64,000 bases of DNA, from the NCBI RefSeq assembly GCF_009834535.1, contig NC_045696.1:18478001-18542000 (forward strand), written 5' to 3'. Source of the stretch: Camelus ferus. Its lineage: Eukaryota. Positions 30,377 through 64,000 of this stretch are shown one piece after another. The notes beneath the pieces were generated by a model. It saw only the letters and a program-made list of their open reading frames with translations. It did no database searches and was not told the origin of the DNA. The translations under genes were made by a program, and so were the position numbers. Position 1 is the first letter of the stretch. Every line of letters starts with the position of its first letter.

Positions 30377-30519
30377 AAAAATGAAAAGAAAGCTCTCAAT
30401 TACCAATCTGTTGAACTGTTAGAATCAAGCAAAACAAAGTCTTGTCTAAATAAGCAGTGTTCTCTACTTCAAATGCGATGGTAGAGACACTCTTCAGCAA
30501 ACATTGTGAAAACATGGTG

Positions 30520-31196: not shown

Positions 31197-33717
31197 GCCC
31201 TGAAAAGTGTAATTTTTTTTTTTAATTTGAGTTCTGAATGTTCTGATGAGTCTATCAGTGTAAGGTTTATATTTAGTTCCCAGGACTTTGAATTCTGATG
31301 GTTGTATTAGTCCTTGGAAAAATAGAACTTCTAGCTCTCGAACAGGGAATTTCTATTGACTGTTTCCTTTCTTGGTACCTATGTGTTCAGTGTCATAAGT
31401 TCTCACTTTTCAGAATGAAATCTATGAAAAAGAAATGAACATTGGCTTAGTGATTGAATCATTGAGTTTGTCCTAATGGCTAATGAATTTAAGGTACTTC
31501 AGAGCAACTTACTTGGGACAAAATTAGGAGAAGTTTTCCTTAGCATTACTTTTAAATTCATTGTAAGCACTATTGTCTCTCCTAATGTTTTATCTCTAAG
31601 AAATGCAGTTTATAGTTCCTTCAGCTCAAAGCTGTAGATTTGGGGGGCTCGCAGTCAGTGGCAGTTAGTATCTGGTCAGGTCCCAGAGATACATGTTTGC
31701 ACATAAACCATTCTTACTGGCTATTGCAGTTCTCATGGGACATTCACTGTCTGCATTCTCTGTGGGTCAGTCACAAGTGTCCTTCATGTCATTATAGTAA
31801 AATTTTAATAAGTATATTTATCTTTGTAACTGATTTTCTTCAACAGCTTTAGGGATATTTACATGTAAACAAACAAACAAACAAGATTTTTACTAGAAAT
31901 CTCTTAGAACAAAAGGAAACACAATCTCAAGTATCCAAGGACCTGCATGTTTTGTTGTATGTTGAGGCTTCCAAATACAGTCAGACCTGTAAGTTGTATT
32001 TATACAAACTTCCTAGATCTCAGAATGAAGAGAGGATAAAAGGAACCCTCCTAAAAATAGAAATTCTGTGTCTTGTCTATATATAAAAGAGAAACCATCT
32101 TGTTTAACATCATGGCATCATCCTTCTTTGTTTGTATACCTCTGGGATAGAAGATTCTTAACCATGTAGTGTTGATGGAATTGGCAATGACCTAAAATAT
32201 GTATTTTTGATACAAGTTATGGTGACCCTTGACTTCTGTGTCAAAATGGGTTTTCCTGTATCCAGTCTTACTTCACTTCTTATAGGAAAGAAGATCAACC
32301 TTTTAGGGAGATGATTTCGTATCTATTGGTGACAAGCACTTTTTCATTTCATTTTCTTTTAATTTTCTCACTGCCACTTTATCTCTTTTCTTGAATAAAC
32401 TAAATATTTAATAGTTTATTTTTTCTATTATATATTCTAGAACTATCTAACCAGATAAACTCAGTAACTTTCAAAAGACAGAAAATAAAACCAAATGTTT
32501 TTAATTAAATAGCTGGGGTGTTAAAATTTATTACCCAGATTGTAACCCAAAGGAAGAAGTTCAACTACGTATTTAATAATGACTTTGCCTATTAGGTCAG
32601 AAATCAGGAAGAAATGATCTTTGTTACTAGACTGTAAAATATGAAGGGATATCATACATTACTTTAAGAGTCTCTGTACATTTAAAACTAATACAAAGAT
32701 TATATATCATGCTAGAAAAAATTCTTGTCGTGTTTTTATTTTAGCTGACACTTTGAACAAATTAGGGGCAAAACACTTTTAAACTAAAAAACTATCTTTT
32801 TAGTGTTTTTATAATATGATCCTCTGTACATAGACTGTGACAACAATGTTTTCATTATATAACACTTGAGTTTAATTTCTCATGGTTAAACTTTTAAATT
32901 ATATACACTGCTTTTAAAGATCAAGTAAGCAATTCTTGTTTCCACAAATTATCTGAAAGTTTAAAAATATTGCACTTAATTATAAAAAATATTAGTGAAA
33001 ATAGTTTAAAAGGGCTTTTACTATTGTATAATATTATAATGCTACAATTTATATAAACATATTTTGTTGACTCAAATTATAACATGTCCTTGGTTATCTT
33101 TAAGACATGAGATAATTAACAGTAATTTTTATACTTAGATTGCCAAATTAGAAGCTAGTATAAATTATGCATACAAAATTTCAAACATTAGTAACTAAAC
33201 TTAGTTTTATTTTGCTTTTAAATAATCCTTGAGTCACTAAACATAATCTAAGTTTACTATTCATCTTCATTTTCTATTTCATAGATTTTACATGTATTAA
33301 CAGAATGTGCAAATGCCTTTGTAATGGATATGGATATAAGTATGGATATAGATATATAGATATTTTGAGATTTGAAATATGATATAAAATGTGTCCTGTT
33401 GGAAAGAAAGCACTAGACAGTTAGTGATTTCTTTCTATGTTTTATTTTTCTCATCTGAGAGCATAATAATAATACTTCTAGATTAAATTTCATGTTTTTT
33501 AAACTTGGTCATATTACATCATTATATGATTTTATTTTGATTTAGTGCTTTACTAATTATCAAATATCATAGCATTCTGTGTTTGCAAGAACAAAATGTA
33601 ACTGCTGCAATAAGCAATAAATTTGGCAGTACATCCTTAGCATCTACTCAACAACTCAAATAATAAGGGAAGCTACCTCTTAAAATGCTAATTACAGTTT
33701 CCAAATACATACTTCTC

Positions 33718-40448: not shown

Positions 40449-41370
40449 ATGACAGAAAAAAAGCGGAGAGCCAGTAAAGACAATTATGTGGTAACTGTAA
40501 AATACAGCATAATTGCATAATTCTTATTTTTTTCTTAACTGATTTAAAAGGCAACTGCATAAAACAATATATATATATATTTTATATTCTTTGACTTATA
40601 GCATGTAAAATGTAACATATTTGACAAAACAACTCAAATGAGGTTGGTCAGAACAAAGCTGTACTTGAGGGAGGAAATGACACAGACGGTAAGTGAAAAA
40701 CACAGAAGGAAAGAAAGAGAAATAGAAATCGTCAATGCAAAACAATATAACAAGCTATAAATATGTACTCACTCTCATCCTGTTCTTTAAAAGATGTGAA
40801 CTTATATAAAGTAAAATGACAATGATATGGTATTGGAAAAAACCACTAAATCAATTTTCGGTTATAATTAAAACTCTTAAAATGTTAAAATAGAATATAT
40901 TTATTTAACACAAGATGCCAGTAAAGGAAGAATGGATCAACAGAAAGACGTTAGACATATAAAAAGCAAAATGCAAAATGACAGCTGAAAATCCAACCAT
41001 ATAAGCATAACAAAAATGTGAATGTCTTAAAATGCCTAATCAAAAAAGATTCAAATTATCAGTTTGGATTAAAAAAAAAAAAACAAAATCCAGCTATATA
41101 CTGTCTACAAGAGTTGCATTAGATGTAAAGACACAAGTAAGTTGAAAGTAAAAGGGTGGAAAAGGATTTACCATGTCTTGCCATGCAAGAATAGTTACAT
41201 TATTACCAGACAAAATAGACTTAAAAAAAAGTTACCAGAAATTAAAAGGAATGATTCATCATGATGAAAGTGTCAATCAATGAAAAAGATACAAAAATGA
41301 TAAACATATATGCACCTAACAAAGATCTCCAAAATTCTTACAAAGCAAAATTGAAAGAATTAAAGATGGA

Positions 41371-41514
41371 TGATAATGAAAAAGAACATAAAATGGAATA
41401 TATATATTTGTATAAATGAATCACTATGCTGTATACCAGAAATTAACACAACATTGTAAATCAACTATACTTCCATCAAAAAATGTAAAAAAGTAAGAGA
41501 GAAAGAAAGAAAGG
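41371..41514 (+). mobile_element. Artiodactyl-type L1 3' stub nested in old L1, with TSD
   Basis: 'tgaatcactatgctgtataccagaaattaacacaacattgtaaatcaactatacttc' plus A-rich tail; TSD aagaattaaagatgga (41355-41370) / aagaaatcaaagatgga (41515-41531). Confidence 0.9.
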
Positions 41515-44064
41515 AAGAAATCAAAGATGGAAATTAAAAAATCAACAATAATAGTTGGAGACCTCAAAATCTCAAATTCAATAATAGATAAAACAACACA
41601 GAAATAAAATAGTTTAACAACACTGTAAGTCAAGTAGTTCTATCGTATCTATGGAACATTCCATCCCAAAATAGCAGTATACTCATTCCTCTGAAGCACT
41701 CATGAAACATCGAAAGATTATACTATATGCTTGTCTCTAAAACAAAGTTAAAATAATTATAAATATTTATAAAATGCAAAATATATTCTTTTACTAAAAA
41801 TTAAATTAGAAATTATAAACAGAGAGCATTGGGGAAAATTAACAAATATGTGGAACTTAAATGACATAATCCTAAATAACCAGTGTGTCAGAAAACAAAT
41901 CACATGTAAAAATTTGAATTAGTCAATTAAAAATATCCCCAAAATAAAATCCCAGCCAAGAAGACTTCATGTGTAAAATCTACCCCACATTTAATGGAGT
42001 TAACACAAATACTTTATAAACTCTTCTAAAACATAGAACAGGAAGAAACATGTTCTCTCATTCAATGAGGCAAGAGTTTTCCTGATAGCAGAACCAGGAA
42101 AAGATATTACAAGAGAAGAAAACTGCAGACTAATAATTCCTGTAAATGCAGATACAAAATGTCCTTAACAAAATATAAAAATAATCCAAATGCTCATCAA
42201 CTGATATCTGGGTAAACAAAATGTAGTTTGTCATTACAATGAAATACCAGTCAACAATAAAAATGAATGAATTACTGATACATGATGCAATATGGATAAA
42301 CTTTGAAGACATTATACTAAGTGAAAGATGTTAATGATAAGAGATCACATATTGTATTGCTTCATTTTTAGAAAATATCCAAAATAGGCAAATCTATAGA
42401 GACAGAAAATCTATTAGTGGTTTCCTAGGATTTAGGAGGCCAGGAATAGAGAGTGACTGCTAAAAGATAGAGGTTTTTTTGGTAGGTGATTAAAGTGTTC
42501 TAAATTTAGTTTCTGGTGATGGTTGCAAAACTGTGAATATAGTAAAACACACACACACACATCAAATTGTAGACTTTAAGTGGGTAAATTTTATGACTGA
42601 GTACTGAATCTCAGTAAAGATGTTAAAAAAATAAATAAAAATGCTGGAGTTTTTATTACTGCAGAAGAAAAGCAGAATGATGTTTTAGGGGCAATGAGGT
42701 TGTTTACTATAAGCACAATATTCTGAAAAAATACTTCACAGAAAATACAGGTATAATTATGCTTTCTTCAGTTTTGTTCTTCAGAAGCATTTTTATAATT
42801 CTGTAGGACTTATATAGCAATTGCTTTTTTCCCCTTCAATCAGAATCTATTTTTTTTTCATATTTGTTTTGATCAAATCTGTGCTAGACACTGAGAGTAT
42901 GGAGGGAAACTGTAGGACATAGCTGACACACATGATGTGGAAGATCAAACTTCTTGAGTTGGAGACACACTTCCCAGAACTTTTACTTCAATTATAATAG
43001 TTGGTTTGTTATTTAAATAAGTGAAGGAGTGAGATATTGCTTCTTTAAAGCATTTGGATGATAATATATTTCATGATTATTTATGAGCCTCTGGGCTAGA
43101 ATATAATATATAGGAGAAACCCAAGTAATACTTATTGAATGAAAGAAATCTAGAGCTTTGCATTGAAATCCTGTAAGTGCCAGATAGCATTATTTATCGG
43201 TTAGCCAGTTATATAAATGTATTTCAATATTTTATATGGTATGTATCCTCTATATTTAGTAGATAATAATGAAACATCTTACATAAATGAGGAAGAATAA
43301 GGGTTTGTGATGAGTTTTCTATCTTTGGTAAAAAGCTGAAGAAAATACCCAGACACTAATACTATCCAGTAAGAATTCAAAATAATTGCTTATACTATGG
43401 CAAGCAACCAGACTATTTATAGTAGTGGACTACTGTTTATAGTAGTTATCTATGGTAATGAAGTCTTCGAAAACTTTAAGTGGCTGCCATCAATGAAGAG
43501 ATACAGAAAGCATCTGTCAAACATGTAATCTTTGAGATCAGCTGTTCTGGTAGGCTCTGTTTATCTTGAAAGAAATCATGCTTGCCTGCTGTTTCTGAAT
43601 TTTGTTATTTTATCAACAAAATGCTGCTATATGGGAGATAAAAGTGGTGGGAAGGCTTTGAGCATTGCATTCTTGTTTTCAAGATCTGACTCTCACCCTA
43701 GTCCTAAGAATAAGAATGTGTTGAACACTGTGCATTATCTTAGTTGGAAAGATAAGGAAATTGTAAAGGCATGACAAAAAGGAATGTTGGGAGGGATACT
43801 GTATTGTTTAACAGAATAACATTTTCATCTTATGTTTTGACTTCTCAGCATCCACATAAAGATACAAATGCAAGCAGCAGACCTGATCAAAAAAGTGAGG
43901 GGCATCTAATCCCAGACATCAAATATCAATTGAATTAGGTAGTGTAACATTTCTTTTCCATGAATAGTATAATAACCATATAATGCAAGCAATGTATGTT
44001 GACCTCTCCAAGTAAGCCTACCTATGTATTTCTTCATTTGTTTTTCACTTAGAGACATCACAAA

Positions 44065-45912: not shown

Positions 45913-47259
45913 AGACATACTAAAGATTTCCCTGTTTAGGGCTGATGGTCATGGGGTAGCTGAGGGCAGAGAAGACTAAAAGGAAAGGAAAATAATTAGG
46001 TTTCTCTTTATTAACATTCCACGACAGTCATTCACACATCTGTAATGTGACACTTCCTAGTGTTTTTGTGCTATTAATCTAGCCATTAGATTATTACCTA
46101 AACTATTGTTTCTAACTCCTTTGTTCCAAAAGGGGAGAGTCTAGACCTTTGAACTATATTAAGTTGCCCTATTTGGAGGACAATTTGTATAGGAGGTGCT
46201 AAGAAAAGTTAAAATGCATAGTGAAGAAGGGAGAGAGAATTTAGAATGATAATCTTCTTAAACTAATTATTAGGTAAACTAAACCATTCTTTAAGAAATT
46301 ATTGACTAAATTAGGAATTGCAGGAAGTTATTTTTTCTAAAACATAAAAAGTGGTTTAAAAGATGGGATTTTTTTCTCATAAAATTCAGATATGTTTTGT
46401 TAACAGATCATAAGTAAAATGTTAACATCAGTTTCTATCTGTATGTCCTTAATTTTATTCCTGAGATATCTTTTATTAATGTCTAGAAATTATACCTGAG
46501 TTCAGTTTTACAAATAATTATAATTAAACTAACATGTTATATAAATGTTGCCTCTCCTAAATATATGGTGACCCCTCCCATATCTAGAGCAATCCACCAT
46601 CATTATTCCTAATTACAGTAATGCTTTCTTTTGACTCTACATACAATCTTTGACCACGTAGAAATTATACTAATCATTTTCTTTCCCATCATTTTATTAA
46701 GATGAAAACAAAGCAGATAGGTGTATGGATTGGTGAATTTTCTCAAACTGAATTTTCCCATATAGCCACCTCCCATGTGAATAAATAGAATATAGAAAGA
46801 CCTCAGAAATAATCATAACCCTTGATCAAAAAATCACCCCCTGTCTATCAGCATAAGTTAATTTTGTCTGGTTTTGAACTCTTCATAAATGGACACAACA
46901 GTGCCATTTTGTGTCTGACTTCTTTTTTTTTAATTTTTTAATTTTAATTTTTTTTACTTTTTTTATTTAGTGATGGTCATTTTACAATGTTGTGTCAAAT
47001 TCTAGTGTAGGCACAATTTTTCAGTTATTCATGAACATATATATATTCATTGTCACATTTTTTTTTCCACTATGAGCTACCACAAGATCTTGTATATATT
47101 TCCCTGTGCTATACAGTATAATCTTGTTTATTCTGCATTTTAAAATCCTGGTCTGTCCCTTCCCACCCCCAGCCCCTTTGGCAACCACAAGTTTGTATTC
47201 TAATGTGTATGAGTCTGTTTCTGTTTTGTATTTCTGTTTTGGTTTTTTTTTTAGATTTT

Positions 47260-47618
47260 TCATATGAGTGATCTCATATGGTATTTTTCTTTCTCTTTCT
47301 GGCTTACTTCACTTAGAATGACATTCTCCAGGAACATCCATGTTGCTGCAAATGGTGTTATGTTGTCGGTTTTTGTGGCTGAATAGTATTCCATCATATA
47401 AATATACCACTTCTTTATCCAGTCATCTGTTGATGGACATTTAGGCTGTTTCCATGTCTTGGCTATTGTAAATAATGCTGCCATGAACATCGGGGTGCAG
47501 GTGTCATTTTGAAGTAGGGTTCCTTCTGGATTTATGCTCAAGAGCAGGATTCCTGGGTCCTATGGTAAGACTATTCCTAGTCTTTTGAGGAATCTCCATA
47601 CTGTTTTCCACAATGGCT
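47260..47618 (-). pseudogene. L1 ORF2p C-terminal remnant (~119 codons)
   Basis: PLWKTVWRFLKRLGIVLP*DPGILLLSINPE...[40 protein letters not shown]..: the L1 ORF2 C-terminus, with one in-frame stop. Confidence 0.92.
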
Positions 47619-47757
47619 TTCCTTGCTTCACTCTCCCACTTTTAAAGATTTAGATGTCTTCTTTTACGATTTTGTGTTTATTCGTTTTGTAATTCATGGC
47701 AGTTATCTCCTTTCCAGTTGAGTTTCTCATTTTTGTTGCATCCTGCTTCTTTTCTAT

Positions 47758-48672
47758 TTAGAGTAGACCTGTCAATATTTCTTTTAGCATGAGTTTAGTG
47801 TTGCTAAACTCTTAGTTTTTTCTTGTCTGTGAAGTTCTTTATCTCTCCTTCTATCCTAAAGGATAGCCTTGCTGGATAGAGTATCCCAGGCTGCATATTT
47901 TTTTCATGCAGGACTTTGAATATGTCAGGACTTTGAATATGTCTTGCCACTCCCTTCTGGCCTGTAATATTTGTGTAGAGAAATCAGCTGAGAGCCTTAT
48001 GGTGATACCCTTGTAACTCACTCTTTGTTTTTCTTTTGCTGCCTTTAGGATCATTTCTTTATCCTTGACTCTGGCCATCTTGATTATGATATGTCTTGAT
48101 GTGGTTCTGTTTAGGTTCTTCCTGTTTGGGACCCTCTGAGCCTCCTGTACTTGGATATCTGATTCCTTTAGGTTTGGGAAGTTTTCAGTCATGATTTCTT
48201 CAAATACCTTTTCAATCCCCTTTGTTCTTTCTTCCCCTTCTGGAACCCCTATTATGTGTAGATTGGCATGCTTTATATTATTCCATAGGTCCCATATATT
48301 GTTTTCATTGTTTTTCATTTGTTTTTCTCTCAGCTGTTCTGATTGGGTGCTTTCTGTTGTCCTGTCTTCTAGGTCATTTATTCGTTCCTCTGCATTATCT
48401 AGCCTGTTTTGTACACCCTTTAGGTCAGCTCTCATCTCAGCAAATGAGTTTACTACTTCTACTTGGTTCTTCTTTATAGCTTCTACTTCATTTTTGACAT
48501 ATTTTATATCTTTAAACACTATTTCTTTTAGTTCCTTTAGTACTTTGACCACTCCTTTTTTGAATTCTTGATCTAGTAGGCCATCAATGTCTATTTCCTT
48601 GATTGTGCTTTCAGGGGATTTCTCTTGATCTTTTAATTGGGAGTGGTTCCTCTGCTTCTTCATGTTGCTCAT
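47758..48672 (-). pseudogene. L1 ORF1p (coiled coil-RRM-CTD), open for ~248 codons then frameshifted
   Basis: ORF track 47851..48672: motifs NLHIIGVPEGEE, ENFPNL, RHIIIKM, IRLSADFS, ARREW. A 17-bp duplication (47909-47942) shifts the frame; the ancestral C-terminus YPARLSFRIEGEIKNFTDK...LKEILTGLL* ends at 47758. Confidence 0.95.
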
Positions 48673-50015
48673 ATCTCTCTGGCACTGTGGCTTAGGGAGT
48701 ATCAGTTATCTAGTTCTCCTGGAGACGGTGTGCTCTTAATGATTTTATCAAGAGGCCTTTGTGTCTTTGCCCTGTTTTGCGAAATCAGCTTGCTGTTTCC
48801 AGAGACCCTCTGTTGGCACCCTTGTCTGTGCTGCTCCCAGTGGCTGTTGGCTAGCAGATTGCATCCCCTACCAACACTGGGTCAGGTGCTGAGCTCTTAC
48901 CCAGTGGGTGGGCAGGCGGGTCACTCCCCCTCCCGATGCCGCAGTCAGATGCTGCACTCGGGCGAGGCATGTGGGTGGATCGCGCCCCCTCCCAGCACTG
49001 TGGTCAGGTGCTGCGTTCCTGCCAGGAAAGCGGGTTGCCGCCCACCCGCTCCCGGCAGTTGCTGTGCTGCTCTGTGCAGCTGTCTGCTCCGCCTTGGGTT
49101 GGTGCTCTGAAGGTGGGCTCAGGGAAGACCAGGGAATGGCCTTGCCCCTGCTCCATGCCAAATCTCAGCTCATTGTTTGTCTTGGCAGTGCAAGTTCTCT
49201 GAGGTACCAGGGCAGAAAGATCCTATCTGCCTCTGGTTGTAAACAAGTCTCAGTCCTGGCTAGGAGGTTGCAGAGCTCCTGGGTGTGGATTCAGGTCTTG
49301 GCCTCACCCCCGCCTGGGTGCTGCACACAGGAGGAGATGGCGGCTGTGGCTGTGCCCCGTCTCTCTTCTTGCAAGAAGCACCAAGTAATGGCGGCACAGG
49401 TCTGAGGAGAAAAAGGCTATGGTGCCCCTCACCCCCAGGGCACACCAGCCATGTTGCTTTGCTTTTTTCGCAATTTATGGGGGACCAAGTTTGTTCTGTT
49501 CCATATCCCCTCCCAGCCATGGTGTACAGCACTCTGCAGTTCCCTGGGGCTGCCTCAATGCAGCTGCCCCAGTCCTCTGCCTGGCTCAGGTGGCCTGTCC
49601 TGGCCCCAGCTGCCGGCTCGCATCTCGGACTGGGTGTCACAGGGACCCTTTGTGCCCGTTTAACTCAGTTCTGTCGGTCAAGGGGTGCTCAGGGCAGGTC
49701 TGAGCCTCGGAGGCTCCCTCTCCGTCCCGCTGGCGTCTCCGTTGGAGAGGGGAGCCCCGGTGAATGAGCGCCAGTCCTCCTTTGCTACTCCCTCCCCACA
49801 GGATTGGTCCTGCATTGTTTTGCTTTTTTTTCTTTCTTTTTTCCTTTTCTCCTACAAGATTTTTGGCGTCTTTGCCTTTGAAGAGGGCGATGTTCTGTCA
49901 GAGTTCAGCAGGTGCTCTAGTTGGCTGAGTAGGTCCGTAGATGTGAATTTTGGTGTATTTGTGGGAGAGGGTGAGCTATAAGTGTCCTTCTACTCCGCCA
50001 TCTTGCTCCTCCTCC
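48673..50015 (-). promoter_or_regulatory. L1 5'UTR internal Pol II promoter, GC/CpG-rich, with YY1 site
   Basis: The only strongly GC-rich stretch in the window; CCGCCATCTT (AAGATGGCGG on minus) at 49995-50004, about 11 nt inside the element 5' end, as in L1 promoters. Confidence 0.85.
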
Positions 50016-50397
50016 TGTGTCTGACTTCTTTCATGCAGCTTTATTTTGGCAAGAGTCATCCAAATGTGCTGAATGTACTGATAGTTTCTTCATCTTCATT
50101 GTGTTACTGCAGCATAATATAGGTATCTGTTTTCTGTCAGTGGGCACTGAAGCAGTCTCCAGGTGAGGGTTATTATGAATAGGGCTATTCTGAACATTCT
50201 TGAATATGTCCACTGGTGTATGTATGTGCTTATTCCTTTTGAGAGTAATCGGGAGGTTTTTTTTTTTGCAAAGGTGTAGATTATGCAAATATGCCTTTTT
50301 AATGGATACTAGCAATTTTGCAAACCATACTACTTTACACTCCCAAACACCATGTTTCTGAATACAGGTCATGCCACATTCACCAAAATTTGCATCT

Positions 50398-51010
50398 GTT
50401 TGTTTTTATTGAAATACAGCTGATTTAAAATATTGTGTTAATTTCAGGTGTACAGCAAAGTAATTCAGTTTCTTATGTAAATATATATGTAAATATCTAC
50501 TTTTTTTTGCTTTGATTCTTTTCTATTATAGTTTATTATAAGATATTGAATATAGTTCCCTGTGCTATACAGTAAGACCTTGTTGTTTATCTATTTTATA
50601 TATGGCAATGTACATCTGTTAATCCTAGACTCCCAGTTTATCCCTCCCCAACCCCTTTCCCTTTGGTAACCATAAGTTTGTTTCCTATATCTGTGAGTCT
50701 GTTTCTGTTTTGTAAATAAGTTCATTTGTACTACTTTTTTAGATTCCACATATAAGTGATATTATATAATATTTGTCTTTCTCTGACTTACTTCATTTGT
50801 ATGATATTGTCTAGATCCATCCAGGTTGCTACAAATGACATTATTTCATTCTTTTTATGGCTGAGTAATATTCCAGTGTGTGTGTGAATATATATATACA
50901 CACATATATACATATGTATATATACCACACTTCTTTATCCATTCATCTCTTGGTGGACACTTAGTTTCCTTCCATGTCTTGGCTATTATAAGTAGGGCTG
51001 AACATTGGGA
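50398..51010 (-). mobile_element. Artiodactyl-type L1 3' end (5'-truncated)
   Basis: 'ttgaaatacagctgattt...ggtgtacagcaaagtaattcag', 'ccctttggtaaccataagtttgtt', 'ttccatgtcttggctatt'. Confidence 0.9.
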
Positions 51011-51134
51011 TAAAATGTATATCTTCTTAATGACTAATACAACTGTTCAGTTTTTCATAAGTTTCTCAACCATTTGGATACCTCAGAATATTTAAGTTTT
51101 TTGATTTTCTTCTGCTATCTGAAAATATTTTTCA

Positions 51135-51690
51135 AGACTAGAGCAAGAGAGTAATCTTTTTAACTCCCAAATCATGTATTCTTCAACCCTGAATTTTTTT
51201 TAAAGTAAAAAAAAGTTAAAAAAAAAAATTCCAAAGGTTTACCCTTTTTACTTTGAGTAACACCTATGTAACATTGACGTGGTCTAAAATTTCCTACACA
51301 AAATCTTTTTTCAATTCTGCTGCACGCACACTCTCTTTACTGCTGTTCTCAGGTTGCACCACGTTTTTGTTCTTGCCCTTGTTGTTACTTTCCTTTTAAC
51401 TTAGTTTAGAGATTTTATCCTTATTATTTTAATCTTCTGACTACTGACTATCTCAGCAATTACGTGTCTGCTCAATTGTCATGTAACGAGATGCTTTACC
51501 TGATGAACTAGGATTCCTTGACTTTGATTTTATTGAGGCTCCTTAACATTTTAATTTCTTTAGTTCACTTATCACTATCTGAAATTATCTTATTTTTAAA
51601 CTTCCATCTTCAATATTTCTGTCAATAGCAACTGAGTCTGTATCAGGTACATAACAACTACTTGACACATTTTTAATAAGTGAATGAGAA
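51135..51690 (+). mobile_element. LINE-2 3' fragment
   Basis: 'cacttatcactatctgaaattatcttattt', ending 'ggtacataacaactacttgacacatttttaataagtgaatgag'. Confidence 0.6.
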
Positions 51691-53079
51691 ATGGACAAGT
51701 AAAAATGTTTAATGAGTTATTTTTATGCTGACCCATTTTTAGTTGTTACATTCTCCAAAAAAAAAAAAAAAAAACTTGATTGGTTAAACTTCTGAAATAT
51801 TTATTCCACTGATAATTTTAATCTATCAGTAATTTAGGATTTATAGGTCTGGCAAGTTTTCTGTCACAATGAACATGTAAGTGAATGAAGAAAGCTGTGC
51901 TGTGGAAAGTGAGAAAAGCCTCATGTAAGTACCTGTGCTGACAGAGTTTATTAAGGAAAGCACAAGATGGTTTATGCAAAAGTGGGGAAACTGAAGCAAA
52001 ATGCAGGCAATCTTGTCTTCTTTCTTAATTACCTATGAGATCTTGGAAAGGTATTTAACACGATCATTTTTCACATCCTTTTTAGTTCTGAAATCTCATA
52101 ACTATATGATCTAACTAAACATACATCGAATTCATTATGCCAAGAATATTAGAATATTAACATAAAGGAAAAATTTGCACTACTTGTTTAGCTCTATCAT
52201 ATTTCCTTGTTATTTTCTCTGTTACATATATAGTACTGAAATAATCCAGCTGTTATCAATTCTCGGCTGGTTCTTTAACAAAATATGGCTTTCTTAAGTA
52301 ACGATAAACCACATAGCTTTGCAGGGGTTCTTAGATTAATCACTTACCACGTGTGAGATGATTTTGGTTCTTATCACCCCACTAAGGTCACATTACTGGC
52401 CACATTGACCGCTTTTGAACCCATTGCTCAGCAGGCAGGAGGAGCGAACCATGTTTAATGTTCTTGTTTTATTTCTAGTTCTCAGAGATCTTGATTTTTG
52501 TCTCTTTTTCCCAGTTTACAATTATTAGTTTGTGTGTTTGCTATTTCGTATATAAAATAAGTGTACCTGACTTTAGAACAGATTATATAGTTTATATCAT
52601 GAACTCATCATAATTTCCTGAATGGAAATTATAATATTTGTTTTTTATTTGCAATGTATATAGAGGTTAATCTAAGTAAGTAGAGAGTGAAAATGTGTGG
52701 ACCTCTTGGTTGGGTCTAGAAAAACCTATTGCATGCGTAAGGCAGTGGATTAAAAAATGTAGATAGCAAGAAGCAAAAGTTAGGTGGGAAAGAAAATAAA
52801 CATTTATAAATAAGCTTTTCACCATTAATCTAGGATTCTTAGAAAGAGAAGAGAATGTTCTCGTTTGAAACCAATATGCACCTGAGATATCCTTACACTG
52901 GGAAAGGTTCTTACTACAAACGAAAATTACAACAAAAAAGTTGCATGGAAATCTCAAGTTTTCTTGTTTTTTTTAGAGTTCAATCTTAAAATCATCATGG
53001 CCTTTTGAATTTCTTTCTTTTGCCTTTAAGGGGAAACTCCAAAGTTTCCATGAAATTATAACTAAATTGCTCAAGACCC

Positions 53080-53831
53080 TATGCTAACTCAGGGTCCAGC
53101 AAGAAGCAGGTGGTTGAGAAGGATAAGTTCAGAGGATATAATGTGCAACATGGTGACTCCAGTTAGTAATATAATATTGTGTACTTGAAAGTTATCAAGT
53201 AGACCTTAAACATTTTCACCATACACATACAGAAAAGAATGAATTATGTGAGGTGAAGGATGTGTTAATTTTCTTGATCTTGGTAATCACTCCATGATAT
53301 ATATGCATATCGTATCATTATGTTGTATACTTTAACCTTATATAGTTATATTTGTCAATTATTACTCAATAAAACTGGGAAAAAAGAAATTTGAGAAAGT
53401 AAATTTAAAAAGGGACAATTTACAGACATGTGGATAGAATGTAGGAGAACAGAAACAGATAGTAGAATATTCTGGGGCTAGTTATAGCACAAATCCATTT
53501 CCATCATTCAGTCTGGAGAATCAAAGACAAAGAGTGGTTAATGAACTTAAGAAGTGAATGTGTGGAACAAGCCCCTCCACCCCCACCCCCTTACGGGCTG
53601 GTGATACACTCAGCTCCAGGTGGTTACATAGGAAAGAAAATGAAGGAAAAATGGAACAATCTCACACTCCTCTGATTTCTGGCCAGGGCTCTCCATTGGC
53701 CAAAATCAGTGCAAAGACAGAAGACAAGGGAACCTGTTGATAAAGTACCTACAGATGGCCCTCAGAACACAGTGAAGTGTGCCAAAGGAGGGAAAGTGGA
53801 TCAGGATGGGGAGAACAGACAAGCCAGGACA
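53080..53831 (-). mobile_element. LTR33-like ERVL LTR, interrupted by an L1 stub
   Basis: 'tcagggtccagcaagaagcaggtgg' ... 'aaagggacaatttacagacatgtgg' ... 'ctccattggccaaaatc...gaagacaagggaacctgttgat'. Confidence 0.8.
53120..53390 (+). mobile_element. L1MA9-like 3' end
   Basis: 'tgtgcaacatggtgactccagttagtaat...tgtacttgaaagtt...tatgtgaggtgaaggatgtgttaa...ctcaataaaactgggaaaaaa'. Confidence 0.85.
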
Positions 53832-54360
53832 GACCCATTGGTCATTTAATTGGTCATTTTAAAAGCACAAGTATATTGGGATTTTATTTGGACCTTATTC
53901 CATCCAAGGCTACCATAACAAGCTTCATTGATTCTCAATGATCAAAACTAGTGTAAATCAACACTATCACACACTATTATCATTTGCCATCCCACTCTCC
54001 ACTTTCTCACTACACCCATCACTTCTTCAAAGTTGAAGTGTAGCTGCTTGTGTTTCTTAATTTGTTTGTTGTGTTGTGTTTTCGTCTAGAAAACAGACAT
54101 GAGGTATAAATTACACTTCAATACCAGTATTTTCTTTATGTCCAACATACAACTATATTTATCTATTTTAGAATCAGCCTTCAATTGTCATTAGTCAATC
54201 AAACATTTGGAACTTTGATAAAATATTAGATTCACTAAAATTCACTACACTGTCCATAGATTTATATTTACTATTTTGATACAATTTAAAATTTCCCCAC
54301 TTCCCCCAATTCTGACAACTGCTTACAACTGTGCTCTTGTTAGGCTCCTCCATTAACAAG

Positions 54361-54908
54361 TGTCAGGGCTCAGAGGAGGCCACTCCAATACACGCCACAG
54401 TGGCATATTGATTATTTTGAATTAAAGCTACTTGAGAAACAGTCGATATGAAAAGAAGACTGATTCTGTCTGTCCCCTCTGAAAGCAGCAAATAAATGCC
54501 CTGTGTTAAAGGTCCCCTCCCTGTACCGGGAGAAAGAGAGACGTACTTATTACAAGAGATAGGGAATCCAGGGCCAACAAATCCTTTTACTTCTTCACTG
54601 CTTTGCTAGGTTTCCAAACCTAAACTCTGCTTGGATTCTTCATTAATTTAGCACGAAAGCCTAAGTTTCTTTGGTCAATCAATTCCTCACAAATTCTTTT
54701 TTCTTTTCTTTTCTTTTTTTTTTTAATTTTGTCTAAAAAACATAAAACCTGCCTGCCTTGGTCACTTCTTAGGTTCCCTGTCTGTGAAGCCTCCATACCT
54801 ACAAATTGCATTTATTTTTTCTCCTATTAATCTGTCTTGTATGAATTTAATAATTAGAGCAAGCAAAAGAACTCAGAAAAGAAAGGGGGAATTTCCTCCT
54901 CCCCAACA
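54361..54908 (+). mobile_element. MER34-like ERV1 solo LTR
   Basis: TGTCAGGGCTCAGA...CCTCCCCAACA; 'tggcatattgattattttgaattaaag'; 4-bp flanks caag/aaag (TSD with one mismatch). Confidence 0.85.
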
Positions 54909-54960
54909 AAAGCATCAGAAACATGGCCACATTTGCTGAGTCACTGAATCATTATATAAC

Positions 54961-54990
54961 AGAGAGAGAGTGAGAAAGAGAGAGAGAGAC
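54961..54990. repeat. (GA)n microsatellite
   Basis: Read directly from the sequence. Confidence 0.85.
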
Positions 54991-55702
54991 CAAGACAGAG
55001 TTCAGAAGAGGGAAGAAACAAAACAACAAATTCCTGTGCCACATAGATTAGTCATTAACATAGAAGCTAGAATAATACACTTCAGATCTAGCATCACTCT
55101 GCCTCACCTAAGGACACACACCACTTCATTTTTCTTACTCTGGTAATTTTCTCTAAGAGCAAACTGCTGATTTATCATCCATACATTTCCTTCTTGGGAT
55201 ATCAAAAAATAAATTTACTCTTTTTCTATCTATATCATAGTTTCTTTATTCTGATTTCCCCCTGTGTTTCATTCAAATCCACAACACGTACTGTTTGTGC
55301 TTGCTTTTATCTGAGTCTAACAGAAAGGGCCCATGGTAAAGAGAATGTTGAAAATAGACCTTATCTTTGGAACTGTCAAATATCTCAATGGCTGACCTTG
55401 GGTTGGGCACAAATCCCTGGTCCAGTTTTATATCTGAGTGATAGGTTGTTATTATAATTGAACACTCAAGGTACAATATTTGTCAACTGGTAAGTATATA
55501 CGTCTGTCTAATAGTTTCAGAAGATGGATGTATGTTAAGGATTATGCTTTCCTTTCTAGTGATATATGTTTATTTTTCTTTATAAAAATTTCTATGTCTT
55601 TATAGAAATATAATAGATCTGTTTAGATAAATCAGTCAAATATTATTTACCTAGCCTACTCTAATATTATGGATATATCAAATAGAAATATTTCATATTT
55701 TT

Positions 55703-55797
55703 TAAAATTTTATTTTATTGAGTTATAGTCAGTTTACCATGTTGTGTCAATTTCCAATACAGAACACAATTTTTCAGTTATACATGAACATACGTAT
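55703..55797 (-). mobile_element. Young L1 3' stub (camelid-like) with TSD
   Basis: 'ttattgagttatagtcagtttaccatgttgtgtcaatttcc...cacaatttttcagttatacatgaacatac', similar to the 3' end of the 46926-50015 element; TSD atatttca(t/g)attttt at 55688 and 55798. Confidence 0.9.
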
Positions 55798-56173
55798 ATA
55801 TTTCAGATTTTTGAATGAATTAATCTATCTAAATAGATTTATCCTGCTAACATATACATAGAATGTAAAATAAAAAATATATATGTGTGTGTATAGGTAT
55901 TTATATACATCTAAATATGTTATAAATATGTGCTTATATACTTGATTTATAAATACACTACTTTGTTAGGAAGTAAATTACATTTTGATTGTGAAGACAA
56001 AGTGGAGTACCTGAGAATTGAAACTAACATAATTAACTGTCCTCTGTGTTAAACAATACTGATTGTTGACATCCTTTCCTGTCCCTATATTAAACAGGAC
56101 TAGAACTGAGAAAATTAAATTAGCTGCTTTCTCCAAGACATATCTTCTCCTAGAAGATAAGACTGTGAATTCA

Positions 56174-56626
56174 TGTATCAATTTCCTGGGCTGCCAAGAC
56201 AAATTACCACAAGCTGGGTGACTTTAAACCATAGCAATTTTTTGTCTTAAAATTTTGGAGGCCAGAAGTCTGAAATCAAATAGGATCATGCTCCCTTTGA
56301 AGGCTCCAGGGGAGGAGACCTCCTTACCTCTTTATTCCTTCTGATGGTTGCAGGAAATCCTGGGTATTCCTTGTTGAAGATAGATCATTTCAATTTCTGC
56401 CTTCATTTGTCACATAGTATTCTCTCTTGGTGTCTGTGTCTTTTCTCTTCCTCTAAAAACACCAGTCATTGGATTAGGGTCTACTTCAATCTAGTGTGAC
56501 TTTATTTTAACTAATTATATCTGTAAAGGCTATTTTCAAACAAGCTCACTTTAACAGCTACTGGATGTTAGGACTTAAGTATAACTTTTTGGGGTATACA
56601 ACAAACGCACATCAATCCACTAAACA
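56174..56626 (-). mobile_element. MaLR LTR (MLT1C-like)
   Basis: 'gggctgccaagacaaattaccacaagctgggtgacttt...ggaggccagaagtctgaaatcaa...caccagtcattggattaggg'. Confidence 0.9.
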
Positions 56627-56639
56627 ACTTACTTATTCA

Positions 56640-57198
56640 AGAGTAATTGTTTGCTAATCTGGACTTGCTTCGAGTCCCTCTCCTTGCTGTGAGCACAAAC
56701 TCAAAGCTATGATGTTACAAACTCTACTCAATTATAACTATTTCTTCATTTTGCAAGACCTCAAAGATCTCAAAAAACAGCTAGGCCAACTTCTAGAACT
56801 TTAATAACATGCTGCCCTAATTTTCCATTTTGAGACCCAAGATGTTAATTTGATGTCCCACTTTACTATTGCAAGTTTAATAAGCTGTGCTTTGCTTAAT
56901 TAACATTTATGCTAATGATTTTGGGGGCGTAAATAGTCAACACACCTAGATGTCCCTTGGTAAGTTTTGCTCATTAAGATTTGCTTCAAAACTTTCTCTT
57001 CACTCTTCTTATAATTCCAAAGCCATTATGTCCCAAACTGTGCATGATCTCTTTCAGTTTCCTACCTTGCAAAGCCTGATTTAAAATAAACCAGCCTAGG
57101 ACCTAAATTTTTAAAAATACCTTTTCTTTATTTTCCATTTTGAGATAATGCTGTAACTCTGTCAGCACAAAACCTTCTCTTATTGCAGAGTGATAAAA
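56640..57198 (+). mobile_element. Two tandem ERV1-type LTR 3' portions (MER89/MER90-like)
   Basis: Shared anchors caaagc(t/c)at(g/t)atgt (56702/57018) and attttccattttgaga (56820/57130); the first unit ends 'gggggcgtaaatagtcaaca'. Confidence 0.6.
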
Positions 57199-57239
57199 TT
57201 TTAAATATATTTTATATTTAAAATATATATAAAATAATA

Positions 57240-57400
57240 ACAAGAATATGGAAATCATCCAAAAGTTCATGAACAGGAGATGAAGAAATGAATAAACAAA
57301 TAATGATATAGTGACAATTAGAATATTGCCTAGCAATAAAAATTATAAACAACTTACACATAAAACACAAGTAGGAAGTATGAATAATGAATCTCATTTC
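57240..57400 (+). mobile_element. Old L1 3' fragment
   Basis: 'tggaaatcatccaaaagttcatgaacaggaga...gaataaacaaataatgatatag...gaatattgcctagcaataaaaa'. Confidence 0.6.
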
Positions 57401-57998
57401 CTACTTTTGTAGATCTATTATGTCAGACATAAAAAAAAAATATCTTTTCAAGATCCCACAAGTATTTAGTGAAGAAGACATGATTGTCAGAATTTTGACA
57501 TAGCTTTCCCACCTTTTCCATAGATCATGTCATGTTAAATTGGGAATACTCCCGTATTGTGTGTTAATACAGAATACGTTTTAAATTCAGAACCTTTAAA
57601 ACTCTTAGTATCATTACACTTGTACAAGGCAGTAAAAGAAGAAACTTTGTAATTATCAAAAACTTTATAGTTATCCATAAACTATATGGCTATGACCCAT
57701 AGTCATTTCCTTCACACTTACTTTTTCTGCCCCTTTTACTTTTCCTCCCCACTGTCAGAATGTCATCAACTCCTAGATGGGATGATGTGAATGGGTGAAA
57801 CAACAGACCAGTTTTCTCACTGAAGTTTAGTTCTTTCTCTGATTCCTTCCATTGTGCCAGATAGAACCATTGTTTATTTCTTGCAGCCATGCTTCTTTCT
57901 TCATAAATTACTTGTGTGTATACATTGCTTGCATTTTGAATCTATCAAGTATTAGAAGAAATGGAATGCTTTGTATTGCAATGGAAATGATTGGATGG

Positions 57999-58130
57999 TC
58001 TATTAGTCAGATGTATTTGTTCTGTATTTTATATATATATATATATGATATGTGATATATATAGTCTCATTATATATAATAGATGTGGAGATATATATAT
58101 AACTGTATCTCTATATATGTATATATGTTA

Positions 58131-58189
<59 letters not shown>

Positions 58190-58470
58190 AGGTAGATAGA
58201 TAGAGAGAGAGGGAGAGAAAGAGAGAATATGAGAAAGAGAATTACTATAAGGAATAGGTTTATATGATTATGGAAGCTGAAAGTGATATATCTGCAGGTG
58301 AGTTGGCAGCCAGCAAGCTGGGGATCCAGGAGAGCAAATGGTTTAGTTCCAGTACTGGTTCAGAGTTCAGAACCAATGGTGTGATTCTCATCTGAATATA
58401 GACAGACTTGAGACACAAGAAGAGCCTATGATTCAGTTCAAGTCCCAAAGCAGGAAAAATACAGATGTTT
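57999..58470 (-). mobile_element. MLT2-type ERVL LTR (partial) with expanded internal microsatellite
   Basis: 'tattagtcag'+(TA/TC/GA)n+'ttactataaggaataggtttatatgattatggaagctga...gcaagctggggatccaggagagc...cagttcaagtcccaaagcaggaaaaa'. Confidence 0.85.
58030..58238. repeat. Compound (TA)n/(TC)n/(TG)n/(GA)n microsatellite
   Basis: Read directly from the sequence. Confidence 0.9.
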
Positions 58471-58599
58471 TTGTTGTTAAGATCCTAAAAGGCTTATCAT
58501 TTCCCTTAGGGGTTAAGCAGTAGAGGTCTCTTGCAGCACTGCATTTTCTGAATTTATGTACCCTCTCTTTTCCTCTTTTATTCCTGCTTCAGGATGATT

Positions 58600-59205
58600 A
58601 ACATCAAATGAAGCCACAGCAGAGAACACACCCTACAAACATTCTAATTTCCAACTCTTTGTCCTAGCACTACAAGTGTGTTAAGTAGATGATCTGCCTT
58701 CTGAGTTTCTGCAGGTTATATTAAAAATATATATGCACCACTATGTAGCACAGGCCTGTGTTATTTTAACATCCAGTAAGAGTTTATTTATCTCCATGTG
58801 AATAGCATGCCAAGCTAAGTGACTTGGTTTCGCTGTATCAGCACAATATGACCCTCAATTTTTTCATCAGTCAGGAAAAGATGTTTGTTTCTTATTCATG
58901 CTACATGTCCTATAGGAACCATCTGGTATTGGGCCCATATGTTCTTACTCTGAGAACAAAGCTAATAGGTTTATCACAGGGAACATAGAGACTCATCATG
59001 CTGTAGGAGGACAAGGTGAGGAATTTTACAGCTTCTTAGTGACTCTATCTAGAAGTGAAACATGTCATTTTTTTTCCATGGTTTTTAACCAAAGTAAAAC
59101 TCATAGGCTTGATTAACTATAAATAGGGTAGGTAAGTTCAGTTTTAATGATTGTGCAAAAAAAGGAAAAAACAGAACACTCTTGAATTTTCTTAATGGCT
59201 ACCAA
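58600..59205 (-). mobile_element. MaLR internal fragment plus MLT1J/K-like LTR
   Basis: 'ctgccttctgagtttctgcagg' (int-like); 'tttcttattcatgctacatgtcc', 'ctagaagtgaaacatgtcattt...accaaagtaaaactcatagg'. Confidence 0.65.
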
Positions 59206-59286
59206 ACTAATTTTCATAATTCATAGAAATCCTTCTTTCCCACGATATCACCATTGCATTCTACAAAGTAAGCTGGGACTGTCATA

Positions 59287-59580
59287 CAGTGGCTGTCAAA
59301 CTCTGGGATTTGACTCATTTGTGAGTAGAAAAATAATTATTTAGTTGTGTCTCAAATAACACTTTTGAATGAAAGATGAATATCATAGAATATGATAATA
59401 AATTAGAATAAATCAAAGTTCATGGTAGTCAAACAAAAGCACTATTTTGTGAAATGATACATGTATATTTTGCATATATATCAGTCCAAAAATACAGGAT
59501 TATTATATTATTAACGTATAAAATTATAATACACACCATGTTGTAATGTACTTCACAGCCAAAAATGTGTAAAGCCATGG
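59287..59580. mobile_element. hAT-Charlie-type MITE
   Basis: TIR-like ends 'cagtggctgtcaaact' ... 'aaaatgtgtaaagccatgg'; internal 'actattttgtgaaa'. Confidence 0.6.
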
Positions 59581-59654
59581 TTTTAATGTATGCACTGAGG
59601 CTGCGGCAGCTTGAGGTCTTATACTTTACTTAGTTTTGGTTGAACTTCTATACT

Positions 59655-59842
59655 GACATTTTGCAAAGCTCTTTCACATATATTTCAGTTCACCCTTAAA
59701 ACAACCTTATAAATATGCATAGTTATCTGCAAAATGCAAAACTAAGTCTAAGCAATATGGTGCCTTGACCAAAGGTACAATTTGCAAATGGCAGGGTGAT
59801 CACAATTATAACTTTAAAACCTATTCTTTCCATTACCCAATG
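59655..59842 (-). mobile_element. MIR SINE
   Basis: 'gcaaagctctttcacatatatttc...acaaccttat...aaactaagtct...tgccttgaccaaaggtacaa'. Confidence 0.75.
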
Positions 59843-60084
59843 ACACCCTGCCAAAATCACTATGGTTTATAGCTTCTTTAAGGAATTACTCTCTTTACTA
59901 AATTCTGAGCTTCATTTTTTGTTCCTCTTATGCATTTCTTACAAATTAGAAATAATTATGTATCTTAAAATAGATGTAAGTATTTAATATACAGAGTTTC
60001 ATCTACATCAATATTAAATTTCACGCCTTACCGCTGAAGGCAAATAAGTTGCAGAACTCTTTAGGTAGTTACCACTATTACATA

Positions 60085-60170
60085 TTAAGCACTTTATTAG
60101 ATACTGGGGCTACAAAAGTAGATAAGTGATGACTTGCCTGCATGAAAGCAGCCTGGTGGGGATATGGTTG
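60085..60170 (-). mobile_element. L2 3' fragment
   Basis: 'aagcactttattagatactggggctacaaaagtagataag...cttgcctgcatgaaagc'. Confidence 0.55.
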
Positions 60171-60619
60171 TACAAATATAAAAGTCAATACAATGTAAAA
60201 ATACTGCTCTAGAAAAGTATTCAGAATCCTGGAGAATATTGAGCATGTAGGAAACACTGTGAGACCTAATGAAGTTCTGAGTAATAATAAGTCTGGAAAA
60301 AAAGTTTAACCAAGCCTTTGATGAATAAACCAAAAGACATCTTAAGATGAAGTTAGAAATGTAGTAAAGACATACCAATTTGGAAATAGAATTCTTTCTC
60401 TTATCAAACACGCATTTAGAACCAATTATGCACCGGGAGATAACTGTAGGCACTTGAAATAGGAAGATTAAAAAAATAATGTCCACCTTGATTTCAAAGA
60501 CCTTAAAAAAAAACGAAGAAGAAGAAGCTAGTGTAGTTCAAACAGTTGTTACGATGGAAAGTTTGAAGAAAGAAAGGTAACGTGATTTTAAGTGGTCTTG
60601 TTATGAACGGTTTTCAAAC

Positions 60620-60790
60620 CAGTTAATATGGGATTTAAGGTCTGAGCAGTACAGCCAAATTTCCTAGATTCAAATTTTGGCTGTGTTCAGGACAAGCTAC
60701 TTTATCTATCTGTACTTTAGGTTTCCTGTATGTAAAATAGATATAATAGTAGAATTTACCTCAGTAGATTTCTGTCAGGATTACAAATAT
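60620..60790 (+). mobile_element. MIR SINE
   Basis: 'ctagattcaaattttggctgtg...ggacaagctacttt...gtttcctgtatgtaaaatagatataatagtagaatttacctc'. Confidence 0.8.
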
Positions 60791-62281
60791 ATGTATGTAT
60801 CTCTGTGTGTGTGTGTATTCATTGCTTACCATTTTATAAGCAACATAAGTAATTTCTATAATCACTATATATCAGAGAATAGAGAATAGATTTTTTTTTT
60901 ACATTTTAAAATTTTTTAGATTTTTTAACATTCTTGTGATAATTGTCACAATGTACTGAAGGATCATTAGAAAGGGAATGGCTTGCTTCATCCAAACTGA
61001 TTAATCTAACAATTCCTTCCTTCTTATTTTCCCTAACTTGCATTTCTTTATTTTCTGAATGCATAGTTCATTGTTTGTTATCTTTTAATTAAAAGGAACA
61101 GAATAAAAAGATTTATTTGATCAAATTGTGTGGATGTGAGGCTGAAGTATGGAAGTTTGACTATATTATATCAAAATGTACCATTGCAAGGAAAACATTG
61201 CTAATTGATATTGGAAATTTTAAATTCCAGAAAGTTTTGATTTTGTTGTGTCAGATAATTTGTATTTTTATTACATATAGTTTATATCCACTTGGTTTAA
61301 ATGCTAAGAAGCTATATAATGTTCATTAGAATACCATCATTTTCATTACCATTTTGCAGTGGCAATCACACTAACCCAATAGTGAATATAGTAATTGGTT
61401 CCAACTTGCTTGACAGATGTTATGCAAACTCAGAACTTTCTTTGGTTATGGCATATAGTTATAGTCTTTACTTTCAACTTTGTAGCCTATAATGTACTGT
61501 CACTTGCATGATCTCATTTTATTTGCCTCATAATAATTTTATCTAGTTTTTCTTGTCCATTCAAAAGGACATTAAGGTTTTTCACCAAAGATTTGAAAAT
61601 ATTGCCATCAGAGAGTAAAACCATAAAATCAGCTCATGGTGGAAGAAAATGTTCATCCTAAATGTACCATTTTACAGAATAAATGGCAAATATGTGATTT
61701 TTTAATGTTTCCTTATTAGTCTATGTTAGGATGTTTTGATGTAAAAAAATTAAAAGCACTAAAAATAGGGGGAAAGAACTTAGCAAGAGAAGAATTATTG
61801 TGGGAAGATGCCAATATAGAACTTTGTGAACATCAGAGCAATACTGTGAGAAAGTAGAATCCCACCAAATGGATGACACTATTCTGATTTCCTTAGCAAA
61901 ACTAAAGAAAAACTCAGAACAAATTTTATAGCTGGAGAAATTCTTAATGAAGAATTGTGGAATACTTAAAACATCAATAATCTGAAATCAACATATGATA
62001 TAGTATAAATTCTTTTTAGTCCTAACCAAATCTAACTACCTTATTTTCAAGTGGATTACCAAGTCACCAGATGATAGCAAGATGTTAAAATAATCATATG
62101 ATCTTCAGATACCCTGGTTTCTGACTCTGATTTCTGATTACAAATTTACATTTTTTTAGTCTACTTCTTTCTCATGTGAAATTTAGTTATTGTGAGCCAA
62201 ATTCCACACTAAGAGGAGTCTCTGGGTCATACATTATAGAGATCAACAGTATTATCCAGATACAACATAATCTAGATCTTA

Positions 62282-64000
62282 CAGGCATACCTCAGAGATA
62301 TTGCAGGTTCAGTTCCCAACTATCACAATGAAGCACATATTGTAATAATGCCAGTCACACAATTGTTTTGGTTTCTCAGTTCATATAAAAGTTATATTTA
62401 CAATATAGTCTACTAAGGGTGCGATAGCATTGTGTCTAAGAAAACAATGTACATACCTCCAATTAAAAATACTTTATTGCAAAAAAAAGGTTTTTTAAAC
62501 ATAAATCAATAAAAAAGAAAAGAAAAAAAAGAAAAAAGGAAAACACAACCTATAATCACATGCTTTAAATTCTCAGTTATGAACCAAAATTTGGTAGAGC
62601 AAGCCATGTCTTTTAGCACTTACAATGTTATCAGTGATTCATTAATTAAGGGTTGCTATCTTTTGACTCAGATTTAGAGGATGTGATAGAAACATAAATC
62701 ATATACCACATTGTGATTACTTATTTGCCTATTTACATCTGTTCGACTGAAAACTCTGGGGCAAAAAACTAAAATCACATTTTTCTCATCTTTGTTCCTA
62801 CAACCTGCCTTATTTGTAACTAATATTAAATGCTCTGTAAATGCTCCTGAATGAAACAATAAAACAACAAAAAATTAAGGGCATAAAACAAAACAAAAAA
62901 AATACTTTATTGCTAAAAAATCATCCAATCCTTCAGTAGGTCATAATCTCTTTGCTGGCTGATGGTCTTGCCTAGATGCTGATGGCTGCTGACTGATGCT
63001 GATGACTGATCAGGGTGGTAGTGGCTGAAGGCTGGGGTGGCTGTGGCAATTTCTTAATATAAGATAAAAATACAGCTTGCCACATCAGCTGACTTTTCTT
63101 TTCACAAATAATTTGTCTGTAGCATGTGATGCTGTTTGATAGCATTCTACCTAGAGTCGAACTTTCAAAATTGGGATCAGTCCTCTCAAACCCTGCTGCT
63201 GCTTTATCAACCTACGTTGATGTAATATCCCAAATCGGTGGCTGTCATTTCAGCATTGCTCACAGCATCTTCACCAGGAGTAAATTTCATCTCAAGAAAC
63301 CACCTTCTTTGCTCGTCCAAAGAAGAAGCTCCTCATCCCTGAAAGTTTTGTCATGAGAGTGCAACAATGCAGTTAAGTGTTCAGGCTCCACTTCTCATTC
63401 TAGCTCTCTTGCTATTTCTACCACATCTGCAGTTCCTTCCTTCACTGACATCTTGAACTTCTTAAAGTCATCTATGAGGGTTGGAATCAACTTCTTCCAA
63501 ACTCCTGTCAATGTTAATGTTTTTTTTTTTTTTAACTCTTCCCATGAATTTTAAACATTCTTAATGGCATCTATAATGGGGAAGCATTTCCAGGAAGGTT
63601 TAAATTGACTTTGCCCAGATCCATCAGAGGAATCTATCAATGGAAGTCATAACCTTACAAAATATATTTCTTAAATAATAAGACTTGAGAGTCAAAATTA
63701 CCCCTTGATCCATGGGATTCAGAATGGATGTTGCATTAGCAAGCATGAAAACAACATCAATCTAATTGTATGTCTCCATTAGAACTCTTGAGTGAGCAGG
63801 TGCTTTGTAATTAAGCAGTCATATTTTGAAAGGGGTTGTTTTTCTGGGCAGTAAGTCTGAACAGGGGGCTTAAACTATTCAGTACACTATGTTACAAACA
63901 GATGTACTGTCATCCAGATTTTGTTGTTCCACTTATAGAACACAAGCATAATTAATTTAGCATAATTCTTGAGGGCTCTAGGTTTTTTGAAATGGTAATT
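62282..64000 (-). mobile_element. Tigger1 (TcMar-Tigger) DNA transposon, decayed transposase, runs off the window; interrupted at 62481-62897
   Basis: TA-preceded TIR 'caggcatacctcagagatattgcaggttcagttcc'; transposase text 'ccccttgatccatgggattcagaatggatgttgcattagcaagcat' (QPMDQGVI-type motif on minus) and 'gtcatccagattttgttgttcc'. Confidence 0.95.
62481..62897 (+). other. TSD-flanked polyadenylated insert of non-L1 sequence (probable L1 3' transduction)
   Basis: 16-bp TSD aaaaatactttattgc at 62465-62480 and 62898-62913, preceded by tt (TT|AAAA); AATAAA at 62858 followed by an A-rich tail. Confidence 0.85.

Follow-up and report, generated by a model that had tools for sequence, protein, structure and literature searches.

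A full-ended L1 insertion lacking most of ORF2 in Camelus ferus, probably a camelid HAL1-type element now decayed

Structure of the insertion

The window, that is the whole 64-kb stretch of Camelus ferus DNA analysed here, contains a minus-strand L1 insertion of 3,090 nt (46926-50015), flush at both ends with a target site duplication (TSD). Read in the sense direction, the element proceeds from a 5'UTR through ORF1, a spacer and an ORF2 tail to a 3'UTR and an A-tail. The two copies of the TSD, on the same strand, form an exact direct repeat of 16 bp (5' copy at 50016-50031, 3' copy at 46910-46925), and the window holds 25 complex 16-mer pairs, the other 24 of which do not involve these positions. 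The sense context of the insertion site is TG/AAAG, a variant of the consensus L1 endonuclease (EN) site TT/AAAA. The marks by which TPRT is recognised, a TSD, an A-tail and an EN-like site inserted as a unit, are all present; by themselves, they do not show that the inserted RNA was already without ORF2. The segment is one L1 insertion which has kept both of its ends and is now a dead copy of 3.1 kb. A sequence-only reading made beforehand had described a single insertion with a perfect 16-bp TSD and a poly-A, as well as an intact 5' terminus with a YY1 site and a GC-rich 5'UTR of 1.34 kb, and this description stands, with the additions that the A-tail is degenerate and that the YY1 site is a presumed one.

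The element inserted into an older and far more decayed L1 ORF2 3' remnant of the host sequence (50032-50430, minus strand), detected by tblastn at ~30% identity (E 1e-4 to 1e-6), whose ERSQTQ motif sits within the duplicated target. This remnant and another at 50424-51000 are two older L1 3' remnants, both on the strand of the element, which directly adjoin its 5' end. Elsewhere in the window, old and fragmented L1 ORF2 remnants occur at 18062-18827, 29929-31198 and 41015-42379 (26-52% identity). Within an old stretch of L1 sequence there is an 86-nt direct repeat (29843-29928 and 30138-30223, 88% identity, 295 nt apart), and at 25247-25610 lies a tandem repeat of ~185 nt, itself degenerate.

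The L1 5'UTR is complete (48673-50015, minus strand), measures 1,343 nt with 57% GC, and is partly CpG-decayed, with 36 CpG and a CpG o/e of 0.33. After a G-rich start, AAGATGGC is found at nt 12-19 of the element (49997-50004), and is presumably a YY1 site; pig full-length L1 consensi begin like the element's 5' end. Long plus-strand ORFs over this region were considered as genes and rejected, being antisense frames of a GC-rich UTR.

ORF1 (47758-48672, minus strand; Pfam PF02994, PF17489 and PF17490) matches Transposase_22 (E 1e-23), has a match to Tnp_22_dsRBD (E 1e-13) after a shift of frame, and is 86% identical to the protein record P0001 and 81% to P0002. It was earlier described as nearly intact, which is overstated: the frame is shifted by the tandem duplication of 17 nt at 47909-47942 and by the loss of 2 nt near 47810, so that the product, 273 aa to its first stop, is without the C-terminal domain. 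The ORF1 of the examined copy is dead. A domesticated ORF1 gene like L1TD1 was also considered and rejected, since the frame is shifted and the element still lies inside its TSDs. Ten camelid-type ORF1 fragments among the protein records (an ENA cluster, P0041 and P0122-P0130) have a common frameshifted ending after GVPEGE and differ in their mosaic substitutions, a pattern which may reflect either a multicopy segment or the spread of a subfamily whose ORF1 was already broken. A pattern scan for ORF1 gave 10, 520 and 213 matches in viral, metagenome and genome contigs respectively, none of them a confirmed relative; these collections are without camel DNA, and the scan is uninformative.

Downstream of ORF1, the initial 141 nt of the ORF1-ORF2 spacer remain (47617-47757, minus strand), identified through a by-eye match to pig L1 spacers, and this remnant ends at a sharp deletion junction (47617/47616, minus strand). 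Full-length ORF2 proteins align inside the element only at 47619-47263, and the pig spacers match the element up to the breakpoint and then run ~250 nt more (by eye; supplement to PMC6501411). Beyond it stands the ORF2 tail (47260-47616, minus strand), consisting of the last 118 codons and the stop, from PLWKTVW onwards, with an internal stop at 47562-47560. The first retained proline corresponds to residue 1147-1152 in four ORF2 proteins among those listed (1,259-1,275 aa), and ~3.45 kb of ORF2 are gone, comprising EN, RT and the CCHC zinc knuckle. The zinc knuckle is counted as lost because relatives carry ...HCWWECSLVQ ahead of the breakpoint, their knuckle ending four residues before it. 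With the ~250 nt of spacer, judged by eye from pig, the total loss amounts to ~3.7 kb. The sequence-only reading had placed a jump about 140 nt after the ORF1 stop straight into the last ~119 codons of ORF2, with EN and RT (at least 3 kb) absent, and each of these points is borne out by the alignments, to which the internal stop and the missing zinc knuckle are added.

The spacer remnant has a length divisible by three, and ORF1, spacer and ORF2 tail share one frame, in which two TAA stops separate them; the spacer has an ATG at 47730 and a TAA at 47652. The element closes with the L1 3'UTR, an AATAAA and the degenerate A-tail (46926-47259, minus strand, read from the sequence), and a 3'-end fragment elsewhere in the window (55697-55812) is 80% identical to this end. 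An Rfam search of 47000-64000 returned 0 matches.

Parent family and age of the copy

Identity between the ORF2 tail and camel-family records, mostly of Camelus dromedarius, lies at 81-91%. Among the 120 near-length tail matches listed, the eight of highest identity all belong to this species, and in a search for longer matches Bactrian camel and alpaca records come out on top by identity. In a tree of 22 rows, the tail falls among 15 camel-family rows (support 89/87, and 95/89 for the camelid group) on a branch of 0.055; the tail of the dromedary gene model KAB1270384.1 (P0279), considered below, has a branch of 0.15. These comparisons of tails show the parent to be a camelid L1 family, found in many dromedary records, and agree with the camelid origin which had been proposed as probable. 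Repbase holds the camelid L1 families L1-1_Vpa, L1-2_Vpa and L1-3_Vpa, and a copy 97% identical to the consensus is given for L1-1_Vpa (PMC6726744, supplementary Table 4). Like the parent these are camelid L1s and, unlike the element, they are of autonomous length (PMC6726744). By age, L1-1_Vpa would be the likeliest parent, judged from family names and copy identities. The last ~275 residues of a Bactrian camel GTF2F2 isoform model (P0270, XP_074234302.1) are the ORF2 C-terminus of the same L1 family, an ending which is possibly an exonisation or an annotation artefact.

Private amino-acid changes number 20 in 228 positions of ORF1 and 9 in 114 of the tail, and range from 3.5 to 10.4% in 22 other tails. 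This corresponds to a divergence of ~8% in amino acids, or ~3-4% in DNA by a rough conversion. The mean identity of the tail to 21 camel-family tails is 0.862, compared with 0.874 among those tails. To judge from these values, the element is a copy of ordinary age. Its tail shows no extra drift relative to ORF1, and hence nothing points to a lineage that persisted for long without ORF2.

One copy or a family of copies

A clue to a second locus comes from KAB1270384.1, an automated gene model which was read as protein only. The model is colinear with the translated 5'UTR of the element at 49793-48786 (identity at 199 of 325 residues, over ungapped blocks that overlap) and remains of 5'UTR type as far as ...ENSKL (window position 48786), after which it skips ORF1 and reads R-K-PLWKTVW from exactly the breakpoint of the window. 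Its non-L1 flanks have no match in the window (best E 0.95), and it therefore derives from another locus. The window junction offers an AG acceptor and the bases for part of the R and for K-P. Joining SKL to RK-P through a GT-AG intron takes 1 base change with the window junction, while an ordinary ORF2 requires 3 or more, in a comparison of the best of 288 codon sets. Furthermore, of 212 tail matches 202 have Q before the tail proline and 4 have K, and the minority N at LQN, present in 6 of 29 tails, is common to the model and the window. K in this place is also found in an ordinary context, in the first copy in P0267. The model is more diverged than the element, and the 3' half of its tail, after a repeated segment, is by eye of an older L1 type. 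On the evidence of its residues, the R-K-P of KAB1270384.1 appears best explained by the same junction as that of the window.

Ordinary ORF2 lies upstream of the breakpoint in 24 of 25 informative camel-family records (26 carry the family signature, and one, which joins downstream of the breakpoint, was set aside), a count that is biased in that junction copies are without an upstream reading frame and are rarely annotated. No second junction occurs within the window. A scan for the junction motif in prokaryotic genome and metagenome contigs gave 0 matches and is uninformative, as such collections hardly contain camel DNA. Spacer-derived residues were not found in the protein collection or its representatives, and a spacer-plus-junction peptide compared with 1.84 billion representatives had 1 match, to an ordinary ORF2 tail. 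In a word search of sequencing runs, the 14 rows listed of 24 contained a share of 0.61-0.64 of the words and bore four organism labels; this share fits an occupied site or an empty one. Genome-wide counts of ORF1-only copies do not discriminate either, with 677 in the dromedary against 326 carrying both ORFs, values which are ordinary beside those of dog, horse and pig (PMC5203782).

A family of ORF1-only copies sharing the junction is favoured, the basis being one dromedary gene model, and the element is probably a camelid non-autonomous L1 of HAL1 type (ORF1-only), mobilised in trans by full L1 and since decayed. On this reading, the deletion would have arisen once, in a master copy, likely by a template jump across a microhomology of 1-2 nt (A or AG). 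The master would have been transcribed from its own 5'UTR and would have made ORF1p that coated its RNA, which the ORF2p of intact L1s would have reverse-transcribed at new sites, producing a normal TSD and A-tail. The examined copy then decayed by ~8% in amino acids, and its ORF1 is dead. A helper existed, since 326 dromedary L1s carry both ORFs (PMC5203782, supplementary Table 6). Moreover, in cells ORF2p acted in trans to mobilise a reporter composed of an L1 5'UTR and a functional ORF1 (ORF1mneoI, a proxy for HAL1; PMC11260458), and by analogy we infer that L1 ORF2p may have mobilised the element in the same manner.

Alternatively, the deletion could be a one-off event at insertion, in which ORF2p jumped templates on a full-length L1 RNA and the copy never spread. 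The clean junction, with a probable 1-2 nt of microhomology (by eye against pig spacers), the ordinary age of the tail within its parent family (mean identity 0.862 against 0.874) and the 24 ordinary records among 25 are all consistent with such an event, which is nonetheless rather unlikely, as it leaves the breakpoint-exact R-K-P of KAB1270384.1 (1 change against 3) unexplained. The same breakpoint match speaks against a deletion after insertion, by which a full-length L1 of ~6.8 kb would have lost its middle through double-strand-break repair. L1 copies are known to decay via internal deletions with age (PMC5872511) and the examined copy has other indels, but its divergence is only ~8% in amino acids, and this course of events is unlikely.

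A further alternative is SpIRE-like splicing from a spacer donor to an acceptor ahead of the ORF2 proline codon, the RNAs being retrotransposed independently and with no master, so that several loci would have come to carry one and the same junction. It would account for KAB1270384.1 too, the left side of the junction ends in AAG, the parent's preceding Q codon could give CAG, and among full-length human L1s ~2% are SpIREs that have TSDs and A-tails (PMC5860796). However, the three published SpIRE classes splice within the 5'UTR or into ORF1 (PMC5860796), and at the matching position the pig spacers continue with TATAGA or TCTAGA, without a GT donor (by eye, in an outgroup). Splicing is quite improbable, and microhomology is favoured over it because the pig spacer has no GT at the breakpoint, a weak argument as pig is an outgroup.

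It is very doubtful that the source family was of an "ORF1 plus mini-ORF2" type and thus not strictly ORF1-only, with a product of ~156-159 aa made by re-initiation after ORF1. Such a protein could comprise 38 spacer residues followed by the C-terminal segment of ORF2 only. The spacer stop at 47652, the sole stop from the ATG to the junction, corresponds to a codon for lysine in pig spacers (by eye); the shared frame of spacer and tail has by itself a chance of 1 in 3, and no protein of this type was found in the protein searches. If made, it might aid the capture of full-length ORF2p or interfere with it. An assembly collapse between two family copies is highly improbable: the region is a repeat, but the perfect TSD spans the unit and the join would need a long shared repeat, which the spacer and ORF2 codon 1150 do not have.

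If the family of ORF1-only copies is real, it would represent a camelid, clean-deletion example of the repeated births of ORF1-only L1 parasites. The precise junction and known parent would allow the birth of the family to be dated, selection on ORF1 could be tested against a neutral ORF2 tail, and the insertions could serve as markers for camelids. Such a family would also be missed by RT-based surveys of camel repeats, such as one which finds non-LTR elements by their RT and in whose text, in the part available, "ORF1" is absent (PMC8605555). If the deletion was a one-off, the element is an ordinary deleted L1.

Comparison with known L1 derivatives

HAL1 ("half-L1") elements, reportedly described by Smit in 1999 and by Bao and Jurka in 2010, are non-autonomous derivatives of L1. 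They arose several times in mammals (PMC5753468). The element resembles them in carrying an L1 5'UTR and, of the two ORFs, ORF1 only, with no EN or RT and with L1-type ends (PMC5753468, PMC5786205, PMC13756887); unlike them, it has a dead ORF1, keeps 118 codons of the parent's ORF2 tail and is known from one copy. The HAL1 structure, with 5'UTR and ORF1 present and the EN and RT of ORF2 absent, is thus found in the window, and as to dispersed copies there is one candidate second locus, KAB1270384.1, beside 24 ordinary records among 25.

Rat RNHAL1 is likewise a young, lineage-specific derivative of a resident L1 by ORF2 deletion, the front part of which closely matches the parent family, as in the element (PMC2241872). 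Its HAL1 copies in rat are reported to number ~7,500 and to share 98% identity with the active L1, whereas the element is older and decayed (PMC2241872). The pig HAL1_SSc (3,016 nt) is also an artiodactyl element of ~3 kb made of 5'UTR, ORF1 and part of the spacer (PMC6501411). Its spacer, however, is followed by AT-rich filler, unrelated and ~0.8 kb long, and then only by a short 3' end that lacks an ORF2 tail (by eye), and identity with the element was rejected on account of the different junction, 3' filler and parent family (by eye, from the consensus). SpIREs are similar in being L1 copies complete at both ends, with a TSD, an A-tail and a precisely bounded internal deletion, but they are dead ends that have lost sequence from the promoter or from ORF1, whereas the element keeps both and loses ORF2 (PMC5860796).

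No camelid ORF1-only L1 was found in the available parts of the literature, and no camelid one is present among the 6 HAL1 rows of supplementary Table 4 of PMC6726744; such an element may already be catalogued in Repbase or Dfam. The HAL1 way of life is already known, and the element is probably a new camelid member of this group.
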